Positions 49,444-57,470 of a stretch of 64,000 nt of DNA are shown piece after piece. How positions within the stretch are numbered: position 1 is the first letter of the stretch; each line of letters begins with the position of its first letter. The stretch covers positions 155,286 through 219,285 of the forward strand of contig JAEESU010000010.1 of NCBI GenBank assembly GCA_016290095.1, written 5' to 3'. Under the pieces are notes generated by a model. It did no database searches and was not told the origin of the DNA. It saw nothing but the letters and a program-made list of their open reading frames with translations. Origin of the DNA: Clostridia bacterium. GTDB taxonomy: Bacteria > Bacillota > Clostridia > TANB77 > CAG-508. Position numbers and translations under genes: made by a program.

Positions 49444-51027
49444 ATGACATATACAGATCCAGTATTTTTATGTGCATTTCTACCAATTGTAATTTTAATC
49501 TATAATGTACTGCCACAAAAACATAGGTGGGGAGTACTATTAGTTTCAAGTTATCTATTTTTCTGGTCTATAAGTAGTAAACTTATAATATATCTACTTA
49601 TAACAACAGGAATTATGTATGTAGCAGGACAATGGATAAATAAAGTACAAGGTGAAAGAGACTTAAAATTAAAAGAAATAGAAAAAGAGCACAAGAAAGA
49701 AATTAAAGCTAAATATAATAAAAAAACAAAAAGTATAGCAGTATTATCTACTATACTTTTACTAAGCATGCTTATTGTTTTGAAGTATTCTAACTTTTTA
49801 GGAACAAATATAAATTCATTATTTGGATTCTTAAAAATTCCAGTAAAGCTAGCAATACCAAAATTCTTAATGCCAATTGGAATTTCATTTTATACATTAC
49901 AAGCAATATCTTATCTAGTAGATGTTTATAAAGAAAAAATAAAAGCAGATAAGAATTTAGGAAGGTTAGCATTATTTATAAGTTTCTTCCCGCAAATAAT
50001 GGAAGGACCAATTTGCAGATATTCAGATACAGCAGAAGATTTGTATAATGGTAAAAAAACAACATATACAAGTTTAACATTTGGCACACAAAGAATACTA
50101 TTTGGAATGATGAAAAAACTTCTAATAGTAGATAGAATAAATCCGGTAATCATCGAAATATTTGATCATTATCCAAATTACGATGGCGGAATTGTAGCAA
50201 TAGGAATGGTTTTATATACACTACAATTATATATGGATTTTTCAGGAGTAATGGATATTGTAATCGGAATAGCAGAAATCTTTGGAGTAAAAATGCCAGA
50301 GAACTTTAAACAACCATTTTTCTCAAAAACAATTTCAGAGTTTTGGACAAGATGGCATATTACACTTGGAACATGGTTTAGAGACTATATATATTATCCA
50401 GTATCACTAACACAAAAATGTAGAGATATAACAGCAAAAGCAAGAAAGAAAATTGGAAATTACTATGGCCCATTAATAGCAAGCATAATAGCACTATTTT
50501 GTGTTTGGGCTTGTAATGGATTATGGCATGGAGATGCATGGAGCTTTATATTCTTTGGAATGTACCATTTTGTATTAATAACAATAGAAAGATTAACAGA
50601 GCCACCAGTAAAGAAATTATTAGAGAAAACAAAAATAAATTCAGATGCATTCCCATATAGATTAATGCAAATGATAAGAACAACAATATTAGTTTTTATT
50701 GGGGAATTGTTCTTTAGAGCAAAAGGATTAAAATCAGGACTAAATATGTTCGGGAAAATGGTTTTTAACTTCTCATTTGCTCAATTTGGAAAAGTATTTG
50801 AAATGGGAATTGATGTACAAGATATAGTATTAGTAGGAGTAGTTGTAGTTGCAATTACAATAATAAGCATATTAAAAGAAAAGAAAATAGATATAAGACA
50901 ATCAATAGCAAATAAAAATGTATTTATAAGATGGACACTATATTATTTGTTAATAGTTGCAATCATATTATTTGGAACATATGGAATAGGAATAGTACAT
51001 CTAGATCCAATATATGCTAATTTTTAG
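49444..51027 (+). CDS. MBOAT-family membrane O-acyltransferase (DltB/AlgI-like)
   Basis: 'FWTRWHITLGTWFRDYIYYPV' contains the MBOAT catalytic His motif. Polytopic; starts 1 nt after the carrier-protein stop. Confidence 0.75.
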   Translation: MTYTDPVFLCAFLPIVILIYNVLPQKHRWGVLLVSSYLFFWSISSKLIIYLLITTGIMYVAGQWINKVQGERDLKLKEIEKEHKKEIKAKYNKKTKSIAVLSTILLLSMLIVLKYSNFLGTNINSLFGFLKIPVKLAIPKFLMPIGISFYTLQAISYLVDVYKEKIKADKNLGRLALFISFFPQIMEGPICRYSDTAEDLYNGKKTTYTSLTFGTQRILFGMMKKLLIVDRINPVIIEIFDHYPNYDGGIVAIGMVLYTLQLYMDFSGVMDIVIGIAEIFGVKMPENFKQPFFSKTISEFWTRWHITLGTWFRDYIYYPVSLTQKCRDITAKARKKIGNYYGPLIASIIALFCVWACNGLWHGDAWSFIFFGMYHFVLITIERLTEPPVKKLLEKTKINSDAFPYRLMQMIRTTILVFIGELFFRAKGLKSGLNMFGKMVFNFSFAQFGKVFEMGIDVQDIVLVGVVVVAITIISILKEKKIDIRQSIANKNVFIRWTLYYLLIVAIILFGTYGIGIVHLDPIYANF

Positions 51028-51042
51028 AGGAAGGAAAAAGGG

Positions 51043-51990
51043 ATGAAGAAATTAATCTTAAGATTTATAATTTTTATATTAATACTTTTCATAATTCTTT
51101 TAATTTTGTCACGCATTTTGCTTCCAAAAAATAATACGGATGAAGCCGGAATGAATAATAGCAGAGCTATGAAGATATTAGGAGAAGAATCTGGTACTGT
51201 AGATATGATTGTATATGGAGATAGTGAAGCATATGCATCAATTATTCCATTACAACTATGGAATGATTATGGATATACATCTTTTGTATGTGCAACATCA
51301 GGGCAAACACTTCCAGACTCATGTAGAATAGCATATGATACTTTAAAGAATCAGAATCCTAAAATTGTTATATTAGAAGCAGATACAATTTATTTGAGTT
51401 CAGAAATTTCTGTTCCAGTCTCAAGAGTTTTATATGAAATTCTACCAATAATGGAATATCATAATAGATGGAAAAGCTTAAGCTTAAATGACTTTATTGG
51501 AAAAATAGAACATACAGGAAGAGATTCTAATAAAGGATATTATTATTTATCAAAAGAAGAACCAGCAGATGATAGCAGATATATGGAAGAATCTGATGAA
51601 ATAGAAAGAATACCACGACTAAATAAAGTCTATGTAAAATTATTAAAGAATTATTGTGAGTTAAAAGGGGCAGAATTTGCAATAGTAAGTGTACCAAGCG
51701 TTAATAACTGGAATTATAAAAGACATAACGCTTTAAAACAATTTGCAGAAGAAGAGGGAATAGAATTTATAGATTTAAATGAAAAGAAAGATGAAATACA
51801 AATAGATTGGTCTAAAGAAACAGCAGATAAAGGAGATCATGTGAATTATCCAGGAGCTAAAAAAGTAACAAAGTATTTAGGTGAGTGGTTAAACAAAAAG
51901 AACATTTTAGAAAATCATAAAGAAGATATAAATTATAACTTTTGGAAAGAAGACTTAAACATTATTATTTCAACAGGAAATTATTATTAA
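51043..51990 (+). CDS. DltD/AlgX-like SGNH-type membrane-anchored protein
   Basis: N-terminal TM, a 'VYGDSEA' (GDS block I) motif, and 'DKGDHVNYPG' (D..H block V-like). Confidence 0.5.
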   Translation: MKKLILRFIIFILILFIILLILSRILLPKNNTDEAGMNNSRAMKILGEESGTVDMIVYGDSEAYASIIPLQLWNDYGYTSFVCATSGQTLPDSCRIAYDTLKNQNPKIVILEADTIYLSSEISVPVSRVLYEILPIMEYHNRWKSLSLNDFIGKIEHTGRDSNKGYYYLSKEEPADDSRYMEESDEIERIPRLNKVYVKLLKNYCELKGAEFAIVSVPSVNNWNYKRHNALKQFAEEEGIEFIDLNEKKDEIQIDWSKETADKGDHVNYPGAKKVTKYLGEWLNKKNILENHKEDINYNFWKEDLNIIISTGNYY

Positions 51991-52013
51991 AATCTCATAT
52001 AACAAGCAATAAA

Positions 52014-52042
52014 TTGATTTTTAATACAAAAAGTGATATAAT
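52014..52042 (+). promoter_or_regulatory. Sigma-A-like promoter with extended -10 (TTGATT-17-tgaTATAAT) in front of GC islet 2
   Basis: Read directly; lies about 70 nt upstream of the ATG at 52114. Confidence 0.45.
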
Positions 52043-52113
52043 TATTGTATCCGGAATTACCCAGGTTGGTTACCACGTAAACACATCAACAAAGGACAGA
52101 GAGGAGCGTTCAA

Positions 52114-52692
52114 ATGAACTACGTGGAATTCTTGATGATGGTGCTTGGTAGCATCTTCAGTCTGCCCGTTAAGGGTATCATCTACGCTGAGGAGCAGTTT
52201 CTCCAGTGGCACATCGTGCTCGGCGGAGTCTACCTTCAGCGGCTCATGCCGACGATCATCACAATCTTGGCGATTTACTTCGTCATCATGACGGTGTTCG
52301 CAAATCGGCAGCATCCCTTCCACGGCGGACATCACCATTTCGGGAACATCCTGCATCACATTTGGCGCTTCGTCGTCACTATCGTGTTTGCGTGGTTTTT
52401 CCTGCTCTATGGTGTCGTGGCTGGGAACAACGAACAGGCACAGAGGAGTGCCACTACGACCTACACTTATAGGAGACGGTTTGGTCGTATGTTCGAAGGT
52501 GTGAATACCTTCACGCGTGTCTCCCTTCATTTCAGGCTCGGCAGATGGTTGTACAACATCCTCTACCGTGTCCTGGGGCACATTCCTGCTCTGGAACGCA
52601 ACGCGCGCGTCCACCGGATTGTTGCCTTGACCATTGCTTTGGTGATCTGTCTCTGGGGTGTGTGGAATATCCCTTATGACCTCACTCACTAA
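52114..52692 (+). CDS. GC-anomalous (~52% GC) four-TM membrane protein with a His cluster (HPFHGGHHHFGNILHH); unknown family
   Basis: AGAGGAG site 8 nt upstream. GC3 in this frame is about 70%, against about 50% at codon position 1. A GC-rich terminator follows immediately. The flanks are about 27% GC. Confidence 0.55.
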   Translation: MNYVEFLMMVLGSIFSLPVKGIIYAEEQFLQWHIVLGGVYLQRLMPTIITILAIYFVIMTVFANRQHPFHGGHHHFGNILHHIWRFVVTIVFAWFFLLYGVVAGNNEQAQRSATTTYTYRRRFGRMFEGVNTFTRVSLHFRLGRWLYNILYRVLGHIPALERNARVHRIVALTIALVICLWGVWNIPYDLTH

Positions 52693-52699
52693 GGCATAT

Positions 52700-52743
52700 A
52701 AAACACCATATCGATGTGAATCGAGATGGTGTTTTATTTTTTT
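52700..52743 (+). terminator. GC-rich rho-independent terminator
   Basis: Stem aaaacaccatatcga / tcgagatggtgtttt followed by attttttt. Confidence 0.7.
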
Positions 52744-52803
52744 CTTGAATTAAAAAAATATATATAATATAATTACCTAGGAATAAATATAAAGGAGAAA
52801 AAA

Positions 52804-53991
52804 ATGTACGAAGTATACGCTGATTTACATATTCACATAGGAAGAAGTGAAAATAATAAACCTATAAAAATAACAGCAGCTAAAAGCTTAAATTTTGCAA
52901 ATATTGCTAAAGAATGCTATGAAAGAAAAGGAATAAATTTAGTAGGAATTATTGATTGTGCATCACCATATGTTATAGAAGATATTGAAAAATTCCTAAA
53001 GACTGGTGAAGCATATGAAATAGAAGATGGTGGAATAATATATAAAGACAAAGTTTGCATTATTTTAGGAAGCGAAATAGAAACTGCTGAAATTAATGAT
53101 GATGGGAAAACAGGAAGTGCACATAACTTATGTTATTTTCCAAAATTATCTGATATAAAAGCATTTTCAAATGAAATGTCACATCATATAAAAAATATAA
53201 CTCTAAGTTCTCAAAGAGCTGATATTTCTGCATATGATTTAATTGATATTGTTGAAAAATATAATGGAGTTTTAGTACCAGCACATTGTTTTACACCTTA
53301 TAAAAGTTTTTATGGAAACTGTACAAGTTCTTTAAAAAGAATTTTTAAAGAGAAATATGATAGAATACCTGCTATAGAATTAGGATTAAGTTCTGATACA
53401 TTTTTAGCTGACAAAATAAGTGAACTTGAAACAAAAACATTTTTAACGAACTCTGATGCTCATTCATTACCAAGAATAGCAAGAGAATATAATAAAATGC
53501 AACTAGGTGGAATAAGTTTTAAAGAGTTTTTAATGTGCTTAAAAAACGAAAATGGAAGAAAAATATTAGCTAACTACGGATTAGATCCTAAACTTGGAAA
53601 ATATCACAGAACTTATTGTGAAGTGTGTGGTAAAAGAATACCAGGGATAGCACCTGTTACAAGATGCGATACTTGTGATAGTAGAAATATTACTATGGGC
53701 GTTTATGATAGAATTGAGATAATTAAAGATAAAAAAGAAACAAAAAGTCCAGCTACTAGACCACAATATATTTATCAATATCCATTGACATTTATTCCTG
53801 GAGTTGGAGGAAAGACAATTGACAAATTATTAGATAAGTTTGGAACAGAAATGACAATCCTTCACAAATTATCAAATGATGATATTGAAGCTGTAGTAGG
53901 AGAAAAAATAGCTAAAAATATCATTGCTGCTAGGGATGGAAAAATGCATGTCATCGAAGGCGGTGGCGGAGTTTACGGAAAAGTGGAATAA
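52804..53991 (+). CDS. PHP-domain protein with a CxxC...CxxC zinc finger, endonuclease-Q-like
   Basis: N-terminal 'ADLHIHIGRS' PHP metal-binding motif, 'NSDAHS', Zn finger 'CEVCGKRIPGIAPVTRCDTCDS', and a C-terminal HhH-like 'IPGVGGKTIDKLL'. Confidence 0.5.
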   Translation: MYEVYADLHIHIGRSENNKPIKITAAKSLNFANIAKECYERKGINLVGIIDCASPYVIEDIEKFLKTGEAYEIEDGGIIYKDKVCIILGSEIETAEINDDGKTGSAHNLCYFPKLSDIKAFSNEMSHHIKNITLSSQRADISAYDLIDIVEKYNGVLVPAHCFTPYKSFYGNCTSSLKRIFKEKYDRIPAIELGLSSDTFLADKISELETKTFLTNSDAHSLPRIAREYNKMQLGGISFKEFLMCLKNENGRKILANYGLDPKLGKYHRTYCEVCGKRIPGIAPVTRCDTCDSRNITMGVYDRIEIIKDKKETKSPATRPQYIYQYPLTFIPGVGGKTIDKLLDKFGTEMTILHKLSNDDIEAVVGEKIAKNIIAARDGKMHVIEGGGGVYGKVE

Positions 53992-56540: not shown

Positions 56541-56590
56541 TAAAGTATGCCAGTAAATCTGGCAAATAATTTATTGGAGGTATAACCACC

Positions 56591-57403
56591 ATGACAATCC
56601 GGAAGAGTACACTGGTTCTAGTAGCTGTGATTCTGGCTATCGCCACATTCGCTTGCACTGCATGCGCATTGGCCGATGACTATGAATACAACTGCGTAAT
56701 TGTCGATTTTATCGACGCAGCAAACATTCGCGACACTGCAAACAAGAACAAAGTGCTGGGCTCTATTCCAGCAGGAACACCAATTTACGTTGTTGAACCT
56801 GGAACTTTCTTTTCTAAAGTCGAGTACGAAGGTTGCATTGTTTTGGTTTTCACTGAATATATCCAAGAGATTGAACCAGGAACTGTTTTCCATAAACCGA
56901 AAAAGGCTCCTGAAAAGCTTTACACACTTGAAGGCACTACTCCATATCGGGTAAAACTGAACATGGGAACGTGGATCAATGTGCGAAGGTCAAAGAGTCT
57001 TGATGCTGGTTCGTCTGGCCAGCTCTATCGTGGCGATTTCGTCTATGTTCGGAAGATCACATCTGACGGCTGGGCGACAATCATCTACAACAATCGTGCA
57101 CGGTATATTGAGAGCAAATGGCTTGAACTTGTGACTGATGAAATGGAAGTTCTCGAAACTCCGGTCGGAAGTTACAAACTGGTAAATCCCAGAAATGATG
57201 GAACGCACACTGTGTATCTGCGTAAAGAAGCATCGGTGTATGCTGATATCCGAACCAAAGTAACATTCGGTACTGTTGTTGAGGTCCTGGAGGACTATGG
57301 TGCATGGGCATTGGTAAACATTCCTTCGATTGAAAAACAAGGCTATATGATGACGTTCTACATGGAGCCTTACGAGGGAGAAGAGATCACTGCCAACAAT
57401 TGA
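56591..57403 (+). CDS. GC-anomalous (~46% GC) secreted protein with three bacterial SH3 (SH3b-like) repeats
   Basis: Signal peptide '...ACALA|DD'. Three repeats of the '.N(I/V)R......(V/L)G......V.V.E..G.WA.V' type (ANIRDT..., INVRRSK...DGWATI, VYLRKEA...YGAWALV). Own promoter, RBS and GC-rich terminator. Confidence 0.55.
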   Translation: MTIRKSTLVLVAVILAIATFACTACALADDYEYNCVIVDFIDAANIRDTANKNKVLGSIPAGTPIYVVEPGTFFSKVEYEGCIVLVFTEYIQEIEPGTVFHKPKKAPEKLYTLEGTTPYRVKLNMGTWINVRRSKSLDAGSSGQLYRGDFVYVRKITSDGWATIIYNNRARYIESKWLELVTDEMEVLETPVGSYKLVNPRNDGTHTVYLRKEASVYADIRTKVTFGTVVEVLEDYGAWALVNIPSIEKQGYMMTFYMEPYEGEEITANN

Positions 57404-57433
57404 ATACTCCAAGAAAACCACTGAAATATGTGG

Positions 57434-57470
57434 ATTCCGGGCTGCTTTGCGGTCCGGAATTTTTATATTT
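57434..57470 (+). terminator. GC-rich rho-independent terminator closing islet 3
   Basis: ttccgggctgctttgcggtccggaa followed by tttttatatttt. Confidence 0.65.

Follow-up and report, generated by a model that had tools for sequence, protein, structure and literature searches.

The window analysed here is a stretch of 64,000 bp from the genome of a Clostridia bacterium (contig JAEESU010000010.1, positions 155,286 to 219,285 of the forward strand) that contains three short GC-rich islets. The second of these, islet 2, consists of a single gene encoding a 192 amino acid (aa) membrane protein (52114 to 52692, plus strand). Its transcription unit (52046 to 52737) has a GC content of 52% within a genome of 27% GC; taken in 200-nt steps, the region from 52100 to 52699 has a GC fraction of 0.50 to 0.535, and both flanks have 0.25 to 0.29. 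The GC fraction is 0.12 in the promoter, 0.46 in the inferred leader, 0.52 in the coding sequence (CDS), 0.36 in the terminator region and 0.14 in the spacer past the terminator. The enrichment extends from the inferred start of the transcript through the untranslated leader as far as the terminator, and these bounds point to the transcript as the unit concerned, not to codons or to an arbitrary tract of DNA. At the first, second and third codon positions of the CDS the GC fraction (GC1, GC2 and GC3) is 0.52, 0.35 and 0.69. An original prediction, made from the sequence alone, had described a 192-aa open reading frame (ORF) of 52% GC and about 70% GC3 between flanks of about 27% GC, with an AT-rich extended -10 promoter, an AGAGGAG ribosome-binding site and an adjoining terminator, and all of these features were found in place.

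Upstream of the gene is a sigma-A type promoter (52014 to 52042, plus strand), made up of the -35 hexamer TTGATT (52014 to 52019), a 17-nt spacer, the dinucleotide TG (52034 to 52035) and the -10 hexamer TATAAT (52037 to 52042). With 10 of 12 consensus matches and the TG of an extended -10 element, it would be expected from its sequence to drive transcription of the gene. The pattern TTGA...TGnTATAAT is invariant in all seven aligned loci, and by pattern or by eye the promoter is of the sigma-A extended -10 type in 13 of 13 loci (those of related genomes are designated here by L numbers). Next to the promoter lies the element TCATATAACAAGCAATAAA (51995 to 52013, plus strand), which aligns with sequence 5' of the -35 hexamer in L001 and L015 and accompanies the gene despite a differing upstream neighbour, a DltD-like gene in the window and rluD in L001 and L015. 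The 5' leader (52046 to 52113, plus strand), inferred to be about 65 nt long with a start site placed from the position of the -10 hexamer, is not more folded than chance and if anything less (z = +1.18), so that the ribosome-binding site stays accessible. The leaders of relatives have a GC fraction of 0.32 to 0.46, against 0.12 to 0.24 farther upstream. A universal 5' stabiliser hairpin was rejected, as hairpins of this kind were seen in several relatives and not in the window leader. The Shine-Dalgarno sequence AGAGGAG (52100 to 52106, plus strand) is located 7 nt before the ATG, and GGAG-type ribosome-binding sites are present in all relatives. Downstream, the intrinsic terminator (52698 to 52746, plus strand) consists of an imperfect 18-bp hairpin, with arms at 52698 to 52715 and 52720 to 52737 that are 94% complementary, followed by a run of T residues. 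The terminator stem carries compensatory substitutions in L001 and L015 (CACCAT/ATGGTG to CTGCCGT/ACGGCAG), and the inner ATCGAT-GTGA-ATCGA is kept. The upstream element, promoter, leader and terminator are all homologous between the window and these two loci. A further motif, TTTACATAA, recurs in or just 5' of the promoter of the family gene in L007, L011, L019 to L022, L025 and L026; it belongs to a second clade and to distant members, falls at the -35 position (TTTACA) in some loci and inside the spacer in others, and could be an operator or mere promoter drift.

On the opposite strand a 210-aa ORF (52057 to 52689, minus strand) overlaps the gene and is open in the window only. It was rejected as a gene, as it is broken in eight of the eight relatives tested (the longest open stretch being 46 to 129 codons) and has no Pfam match, in agreement with its original description as an artefact of composition.

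The plus-strand ORF is a real protein gene under purifying selection. Differences between the window copy and its homologue in L001 number 31, 21 and 102 at the first, second and third codon positions, with proportions of nonsynonymous and synonymous differences (pN and pS) of 0.12 and 0.77, and the corresponding rate ratio (dN/dS) is 0.04 to 0.33 for other pairs where it could be computed. Conservation of the protein extends to members with approximately 30% identity, in which the reading frame is intact. Among 5.8 billion proteins searched, 12 clusters were found, with identities from 100% down to 38%, and an exhaustive profile search of 1.84 billion representatives gave 30 matches, all of 125 to 213 aa except for two weak repeat matches. 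No credible family was found in Pfam, PHROGs, NCBIfam or PADLOC for the window protein or for all 12 family members, and searches of the PDB and of known folds gave no significant match for the islet 2 protein. Judged by these searches, the islet 2 family is a very small, undescribed family of predicted polytopic membrane proteins of about 190 aa, and it is found only in very AT-rich (20 to 29% GC), uncultured, mostly gut, Clostridia. In the literature we found nothing relevant describing conserved GC-rich genes in AT-rich Clostridia.

The predicted protein has about four hydrophobic segments, in line with the four transmembrane segments originally proposed. An AlphaFold2 model built from 32 sequences (predicted local distance difference test score, pLDDT, 89; predicted template modelling score, pTM, 0.75) has four long helices, a beta-hairpin at residues 114 to 136 and an Arg-rich amphipathic helix at residues 138 to 154. 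Profile and structure searches, one of the checks suggested with the original prediction, gave no family or fold match; the model is a confident one, and the protein defines a new membrane-protein family with no known relative. Motifs conserved among the 32 sequences are WPxKGIIYxEEQ, AWxxLxYG, SLHFRLGRW and a C-terminal LWGVWxIPYDLTH, and G21, E26, W94, G100, H139, G143, R144 and P187 are invariant or nearly so. A loop proposed earlier as a metal-binding cluster, the His-rich HPFHGGHHHFGNILHH (residues 67 to 82; 52312 to 52359, plus strand), does exist between helices 2 and 3, but its His cluster is not conserved: the loop is variable in the family, being His-rich in some members and with Arg, Gly and Ser in others (for example RVLRGASG in P0011), and it is the lowest-confidence region of the model. 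From this alignment the His cluster may be a lineage-specific feature, and a metal site as the function of the family is not supported. The sole nearly invariant His is H139 in SLHFRLGR; H139, E26, R144 and the other invariant residues, and not the His cluster, are the candidates for tests of function.

A simple gene call made across the whole window gave 59 ORFs with a median GC3 of 0.136. GC3 is bimodal in the window, with all non-islet ORFs at 0.07 to 0.18 and the four islet genes at 0.41 to 0.70. In most members of the islet 2 family the third positions are near-uniform in base composition, and in the window copy third-position A (A3) is only 0.06. A is depleted more than T at this position, A3 being 0.06 to 0.36 (host, 0.46) and T3 0.24 to 0.45 (host, 0.40). 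Leu and Arg codons are shifted to CTN and CGN, and Lys is largely replaced by Arg, with R/(R+K) at 0.76 to 0.94 in the family versus 0.19 to 0.35 in host proteins. The codons CGG, CTC, CTG and CCC are nearly absent from host genes. CGG does not occur among the 17,667 host codons of the window versus 11 times among the 809 codons of the four islet genes, four of these in the islet 2 gene; CCC, CTC and CGC occur three, eight and seven times in the host codons, and all are common in the islet genes. The islet 2 gene of the window also wholly avoids ATA, TTA, AAA, CAA and GTA. Between one and four CGG codons are present in every family member, and reassignment of CGG was rejected because Arg is the residue aligned in the CGG columns. 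A search for a rare codon at a fixed position, or for a programmed CGG stall, found none in the family, the CGG codons being spread over 20 columns, and no synonymous site is conserved across it. Two smaller observations concern individual codons. A single conserved CGG in the N-terminus (GPNR) of RecG in L011, L019 and L020 indicates that CGG is decodable in related genomes. A tiny hairpin, (G)CCC-NNN-AAR-GG(G/C), lies within the invariant WPxKG motif at 52163 to 52174 (codons P18 to G21) and at the homologous position in relatives; its very rare Pro codon CCC is retained in 7 of 12 lineages, and other synonymous sites are randomised.

Approximately 20 loci from independent studies were compared, one of which, the 1-kb contig L028, is too short for its flanks to be judged. 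Flanking DNA has a GC fraction of 0.20 to 0.29 in these loci, and the gene is always enriched (GC 0.34 to 0.52, GC3 0.23 to 0.70), even in members that are only about 30% identical. The host organisms are metagenome-assembled genomes (MAGs) labelled 'uncultured Clostridia bacterium' or 'Lachnospiraceae bacterium'; the organism of the window belongs to an uncultured MAG lineage of Clostridia, and the 'Clostridium chromosome' of the original prediction is supported to that extent and not as far as Clostridium sensu stricto. Examination of the cognate locus, also suggested at that time, showed that in L001 to L004, four independent assemblies of a related genome, a 79 to 80% identical homologue lies directly 5' of the same EndoQ-like gene (395 aa, PHP/HhH) as in the window, followed in these loci by xerD, rlmH, an islet 3 homologue and truB. 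The order is rluD, islet gene, EndoQ in L015 to L017; rluD, islet gene, NUDIX in L005; and clpX, islet gene, rluD in L022. In a second clade (L007 to L014 and L019 to L021) the gene is located between SBP_bac_5 and spoVS. Across these loci the identity of the islet protein follows the same ranking as the identities of RluD and ClpX, as expected for vertical descent. No integrase, att-like repeat or tRNA gene was found at the borders, where the flanking direct and inverted repeats are AT-rich chance matches only, and the xerD-like gene that lies 2 kb downstream belongs to the conserved core, with 98% identity to its counterpart in L001. An empty cognate site was not recovered in relatives, in a search that was not exhaustive. 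BLASTN of the 0.7-kb unit against plasmid and phage collections gave no match, and neither did a scan of viral contigs with islet 2.

Under amelioration, a composition acquired from elsewhere should decay towards that of the host. The proportion of host four-fold degenerate sites that differ between the window and L001 is p = 0.417; at this base composition saturation would be reached at 0.538. With host parameters, the F81 substitution model leaves about half of any excess GC surviving per lineage since the split of the window from L001, and at most 0.34 for deeper splits from the window; to leave the present GC3 of 0.70, the ancestor would have had to exceed 100% GC3. When L015 was taken as outgroup, synonymous changes in the window lineage numbered 12 from AT to GC versus 1 from GC to AT, and in the L001 lineage 6 versus 18. 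This test rests on the F81 model and on parsimony; very recent single-nucleotide polymorphisms among near-identical copies could not be polarised, as there were only zero to two differences. GC-richness is thus a persistent trait of the family and not the fading trace of a transfer. Since there has been no decay despite saturated sites, either some force upholds the GC content or alleles are re-imported from a donor pool, and databases of 15 billion proteins show no sign of such a pool.

The minimum free energy (MFE) of each CDS was compared with that of synonymous-codon shuffles in which the protein, codon usage and GC content were kept. All 12 family CDSs gave negative z-scores (-0.55 to -7.06, mean -3.3), while six host genes of similar length gave -1.6 to +0.9 (mean -0.2; Mann-Whitney p = 0.0004 versus the family). 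The reverse complements of the family CDSs had a mean z of only -0.9 (paired p = 0.0005), which indicates that the excess folding is specific to the sense strand. Against dinucleotide shuffles, whole transcripts gave z = -4.9, -6.9 and -2.9.

In the explanation that we favour, at not quite even odds, the islet 2 gene is native and monocistronic and has been inherited vertically, and weak, diffuse selection at the RNA level keeps its transcript compact, rich in GC and poor in A. Such a pressure, of about 2 to 3 per site in units of 4Nes (four times effective population size times selection coefficient), would favour G and C and disfavour A along the whole transcript, opposing the extreme AT mutation bias of the genome. 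By our own calculation this bias is approximately 7 to 15 to 1, and a GC3 near 0.5 needs a pressure of about ln(bias), or 2 to 3; a pressure of this size predicts a somewhat higher rate of exchange between AT and GC at the four-fold sites of the islet, as was seen. The result would be an mRNA whose folding is about two times as stable as that of host mRNAs and exceeds that of its own codon-shuffled versions. In Firmicutes RNase Y and RNase J attack AU-rich single-stranded RNA, and a folded, GC-rich mRNA, presumably poorly accessible to these AU-directed RNases, should therefore be long-lived. Selection for mRNA secondary structure in bacterial coding regions was reportedly described by Katz and Burge in 2003, and stabilised Firmicute mRNAs include those with the aprE and ermC 5' stabilisers and the cryIIIA STAB-SD. 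The islet family is similar in that its CDSs fold better than their synonymous-codon shuffles, and in its strong Shine-Dalgarno sequence, its strong terminator and the 5'-proximal hairpins of several relatives. It differs in the much larger effect in several members (z of -4.5 to -7), in that its stability is predicted, and in a wholesale shift of bases and amino acids against a 27% GC background.

Several results weigh against selection on the RNA. In the window copy itself the folding excess is marginal (z = -1.76; 9 of 200 shuffles folded equally well), and L005, which also has the lowest GC3 (0.23), is without a folding excess (z = -0.55). The host control genes are AT-rich and so are an imperfect control for the z-scores of GC-rich genes. 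There is no family-wide structure: RNAalifold gave -4.2 kcal/mol with 14 pairs and a covariation term of 0.06, and MFE pairs shared between members were only short local hairpins within conserved peptide motifs. With no conserved fold, the target of selection would be a generic 'foldedness', which is hard to prove. GC3 also varies widely among lineages. Finally, the four-fold sites of the islets are at least as diverged as those of the host (divergence at four-fold sites, d4, 1.5 to 1.8 versus 0.8), which fits a weak directional pressure but would fit a biased mutational or conversion process equally well.

If selection on the RNA is the cause, islet 2 would be an unusually clean natural case in which synonymous, untranslated and even Arg-for-Lys choices are driven by a property of the transcript, with a strength of selection that can be estimated directly against a measurable mutation bias. 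Recent horizontal gene transfer is the routine reading of genes with outlying GC content and codon usage. Islet 2 is an extreme outlier that is both native and conserved, and in AT-rich MAGs genes of this kind would systematically be mis-called.

A different account of the same persistence is that alleles arrive, recently or repeatedly, from unsampled GC-richer donors and displace the copy already present through homologous recombination within the conserved flanks, the lineages then being stages of amelioration. The very recent horizontal gene transfer from a high-GC donor proposed in the original prediction is the single-event version of this account. Import would explain a codon usage like that of a Firmicute of 45 to 55% GC, the confinement of CGG in the window to the islet genes, and a GC3 range that resembles a series of amelioration stages with the window copy, from its 12:1 excess of AT-to-GC changes, 'fresher' than that of L001. 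Divergence is also greater in the islet genes than in the flanking genes (aa identities of 80% and 63% versus 74 to 98%, together with the higher d4), and the position of the gene relative to rluD differs slightly between loci, with a second site used in another clade. However, the homologues sit in fixed slots of 20 to 29% GC hosts; none of the approximately 20 loci has the gene in a GC-rich context, no member is on a phage, plasmid or viral contig, and the whole family amounts to about 30 clusters in 1.84 billion proteins. The ranking of protein identity with RluD and ClpX, the homology between lineages of the AT-rich promoter, the leader and the terminator, and borders free of mobility genes all argue for descent in place, the same persistence is seen in two unrelated islet families of the window, and sense-strand-specific folding would be left unexplained. 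Islets acquired horizontally, as reportedly set out with the amelioration model by Lawrence and Ochman in 1997, are like islet 2 in being short segments of off-host GC content and codon usage, with a lineage-restricted 'ORFan' between core genes. Islet 2 is unlike them in its fixed sites in diverged relatives, in having no donor or mobility signature, and in a composition that is undecayed at saturated synonymous divergence and whose GC3 has apparently risen in the window lineage. A single very recent transfer is not supported by these data, and we consider import in general to be unlikely.

Selection on the RNA must also be set against a local GC-ward process that is not adaptive, either GC-biased gene conversion at recombination-prone, fast-evolving loci or a mutation or repair bias associated with transcription at strongly transcribed units. 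The diffuse enrichment at all codon positions and in the leader, the lack of any conserved synonymous site, and a synonymous divergence above that of host genes, as expected for a directional bias B of about 2 to 3, would all fit such a process; the match of the bounds to the transcription unit and the near-consensus promoter would fit one linked to transcription. Conversion tracts, however, would not be expected to end exactly at a promoter and a terminator at three unrelated loci and across many lineages. Bacterial GC-biased gene conversion, described, it is said, by Lassalle et al. in 2015 with effects of a few percent GC3, would give a local rise in GC3 and a higher substitution rate as seen here, but in the islets GC3 rises from 0.12 to between 0.4 and 0.7 within bounds that coincide with the transcription unit. 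As for transcription, cytosine deamination on the non-template strand pushes towards AT; the known damage therefore runs in the wrong direction, and presumably highly expressed host genes in the window keep a GC3 of 0.07 to 0.12. More folding than in codon-shuffled controls, and on the sense strand alone, is not a prediction of a mutational process. We regard this process as rather improbable.

Codon usage itself could be the target if translation of the gene were slow or gated by the supply of a rare tRNA, for example a tRNA-Arg reading CGG, in a mirror image of the control of TTA codons by bldA in Streptomyces. The distribution of CGG, which is aligned with Arg in every family member and found in the window only in islet genes, and the complete avoidance of five AT-rich codons in the window gene speak for such gating, and as with bldA, a few accessory genes are enriched in codons that housekeeping genes hardly ever use. 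Unlike in that system, the islet has the mirror-image composition, with all codon families and the untranslated leader affected and no rare codon positionally conserved. Most members are near-uniform at third positions and do not use a targeted set of rare codons, and CGG occurs, rarely, in core genes of related genomes, as in RecG, which makes it decodable and not reserved. The evidence on tRNA is limited to one tRNA in the window, no tRNA gene being present in the fetched related loci. There is a slim chance that gating accounts for the islet.

In AT-rich genomes GC islands are usually structured RNAs, and the islet could in principle be a non-coding or dual-function RNA of this kind, comparable to rRNA, OLE or ROOL, with the ORF secondary or spurious. 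A GC island bounded by promoter and terminator with strong predicted folding, including the z-scores of whole transcripts against dinucleotide shuffles, recalls the genes for rRNA, tRNA, RNase P, OLE and ROOL/GOLLD. Islet 2 differs from these in encoding a protein under purifying selection, with a clear codon-position signature, and in having no conserved secondary structure or covariation. In Rfam only a tRNA elsewhere in the window reached the gathering threshold, and nothing credible was found in 51900 to 52850 at E-values up to 10. This explanation is very improbable and has been largely refuted.

An assembly chimera, contamination or an engineered insert, as originally raised, is scarcely credible: it has in its favour only the sharp break in composition and the presence of the exact window protein in a single NCBI contig, and against it are the same junctions between gene and flanks in independent ENA, Logan and NCBI assemblies of different samples, with homologous units in many metagenome assemblies, the lack of any similarity to a vector, plasmid or phage (a known cloning or vector sequence would have refuted the original prediction), and the conservation between species of the promoter element, the terminator and the promoter of the next gene at the junctions.

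The other two islets of the window behave in the same way as islet 2 and are conserved as GC islets in relatives. Each of the three is an orphan restricted to its lineage and has promoter-like and terminator-like sequences of its own. Islet 3 (region 56550 to 57450) contains a 270-aa ORF (56591 to 57403) with SH3_3 domains, 45% GC and a GC3 of 0.44, with a perfect TTGACA-17-TATAAT promoter upstream and a GC hairpin terminator downstream; from its N-terminus, judged by eye, the product looks like a lipoprotein or secreted protein. Its homologue in L001, in the same slot between rlmH and truB, has a GC3 of 0.41 and 63% aa identity and folds far better than its codon shuffles (z = -6.6), and only four relatives were found in 5.8 billion proteins. 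Islet 1 (region 16030 to 17200) contains two ORFs (16087 to 16572, 161 aa, and 16582 to 17142, 186 aa) that are tandem paralogues with 27% identity (E = 2e-20) and have GC3 values of 0.42 and 0.41. A promoter-like site is located upstream and a hairpin terminator at about 17192 to 17216, and neither ORF has a Pfam match. The pair recurs in L030, from a 24% GC genome, with GC3 values of 0.37 and 0.40 and in the same slot between a DNA_alkylation gene and an acyl-CoA synthetase gene; only two relatives were found in the 5.8 billion proteins.

It is conceivable, though we think it doubtful, that very AT-rich gut Clostridia have a dispersed class of lineage-specific 'GC-islet genes', of which the window would contain three units. 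Their whole transcripts would be kept at 40 to 52% GC, poor in A and highly folded, by a selection that overcomes an AT mutation pressure among the most extreme known for free-living bacteria, and would form a special tier of nuclease-resistant and long-lived, or rare-codon-gated, mRNAs. Such mRNAs could serve when AU-rich mRNAs are unmade or destroyed, as in dormancy or sporulation, activation of toxin RNases or phage attack. The islet 2 family and the two other orphan families, which behave alike, may have a physiology in common in this uncultured gut lineage. More GC-enriched stretches or small ORFs (GC3 0.27 to 0.41 in contexts of 26 to 28% GC) were noted in relatives at L021 4361 to 5140, L005 8501 to 8749, L005 58 to 780 and L022 7821 to 8303; those of L005 include an 82-aa Cys-rich ORF between clpX and rluD. 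These stretches may be further islets of the same kind.

Two neighbours of islet 2 were also noted. Upstream, 46748 to 51990 holds a five-gene cluster of host-like composition that resembles a Dlt-type, carrier-protein-dependent acylation system, with an AMP-binding ligase, a pyridoxal phosphate (PLP) decarboxylase/racemase-fold protein, a 76-aa carrier protein, an MBOAT (DltB-like) protein and a 315-aa protein that has a weak GDSL/SGNH match and is DltD-like by position. In L001 and L015 rluD directly adjoins the islet, and by comparison with them this cluster is an insertion between rluD and islet 2. Downstream, the gene at 52804 to 53991 encodes the 395-aa protein with weak PHP-associated and helix-hairpin-helix matches in an EndoQ-like architecture, which is 95% identical in L001 and has a Cys-rich stretch, CEVCGKR...CDTCDS, that resembles a zinc ribbon by eye. 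The promoter of this gene (52745 to 52773) begins directly after the islet terminator, and this junction is conserved in L001, L015 and L024.

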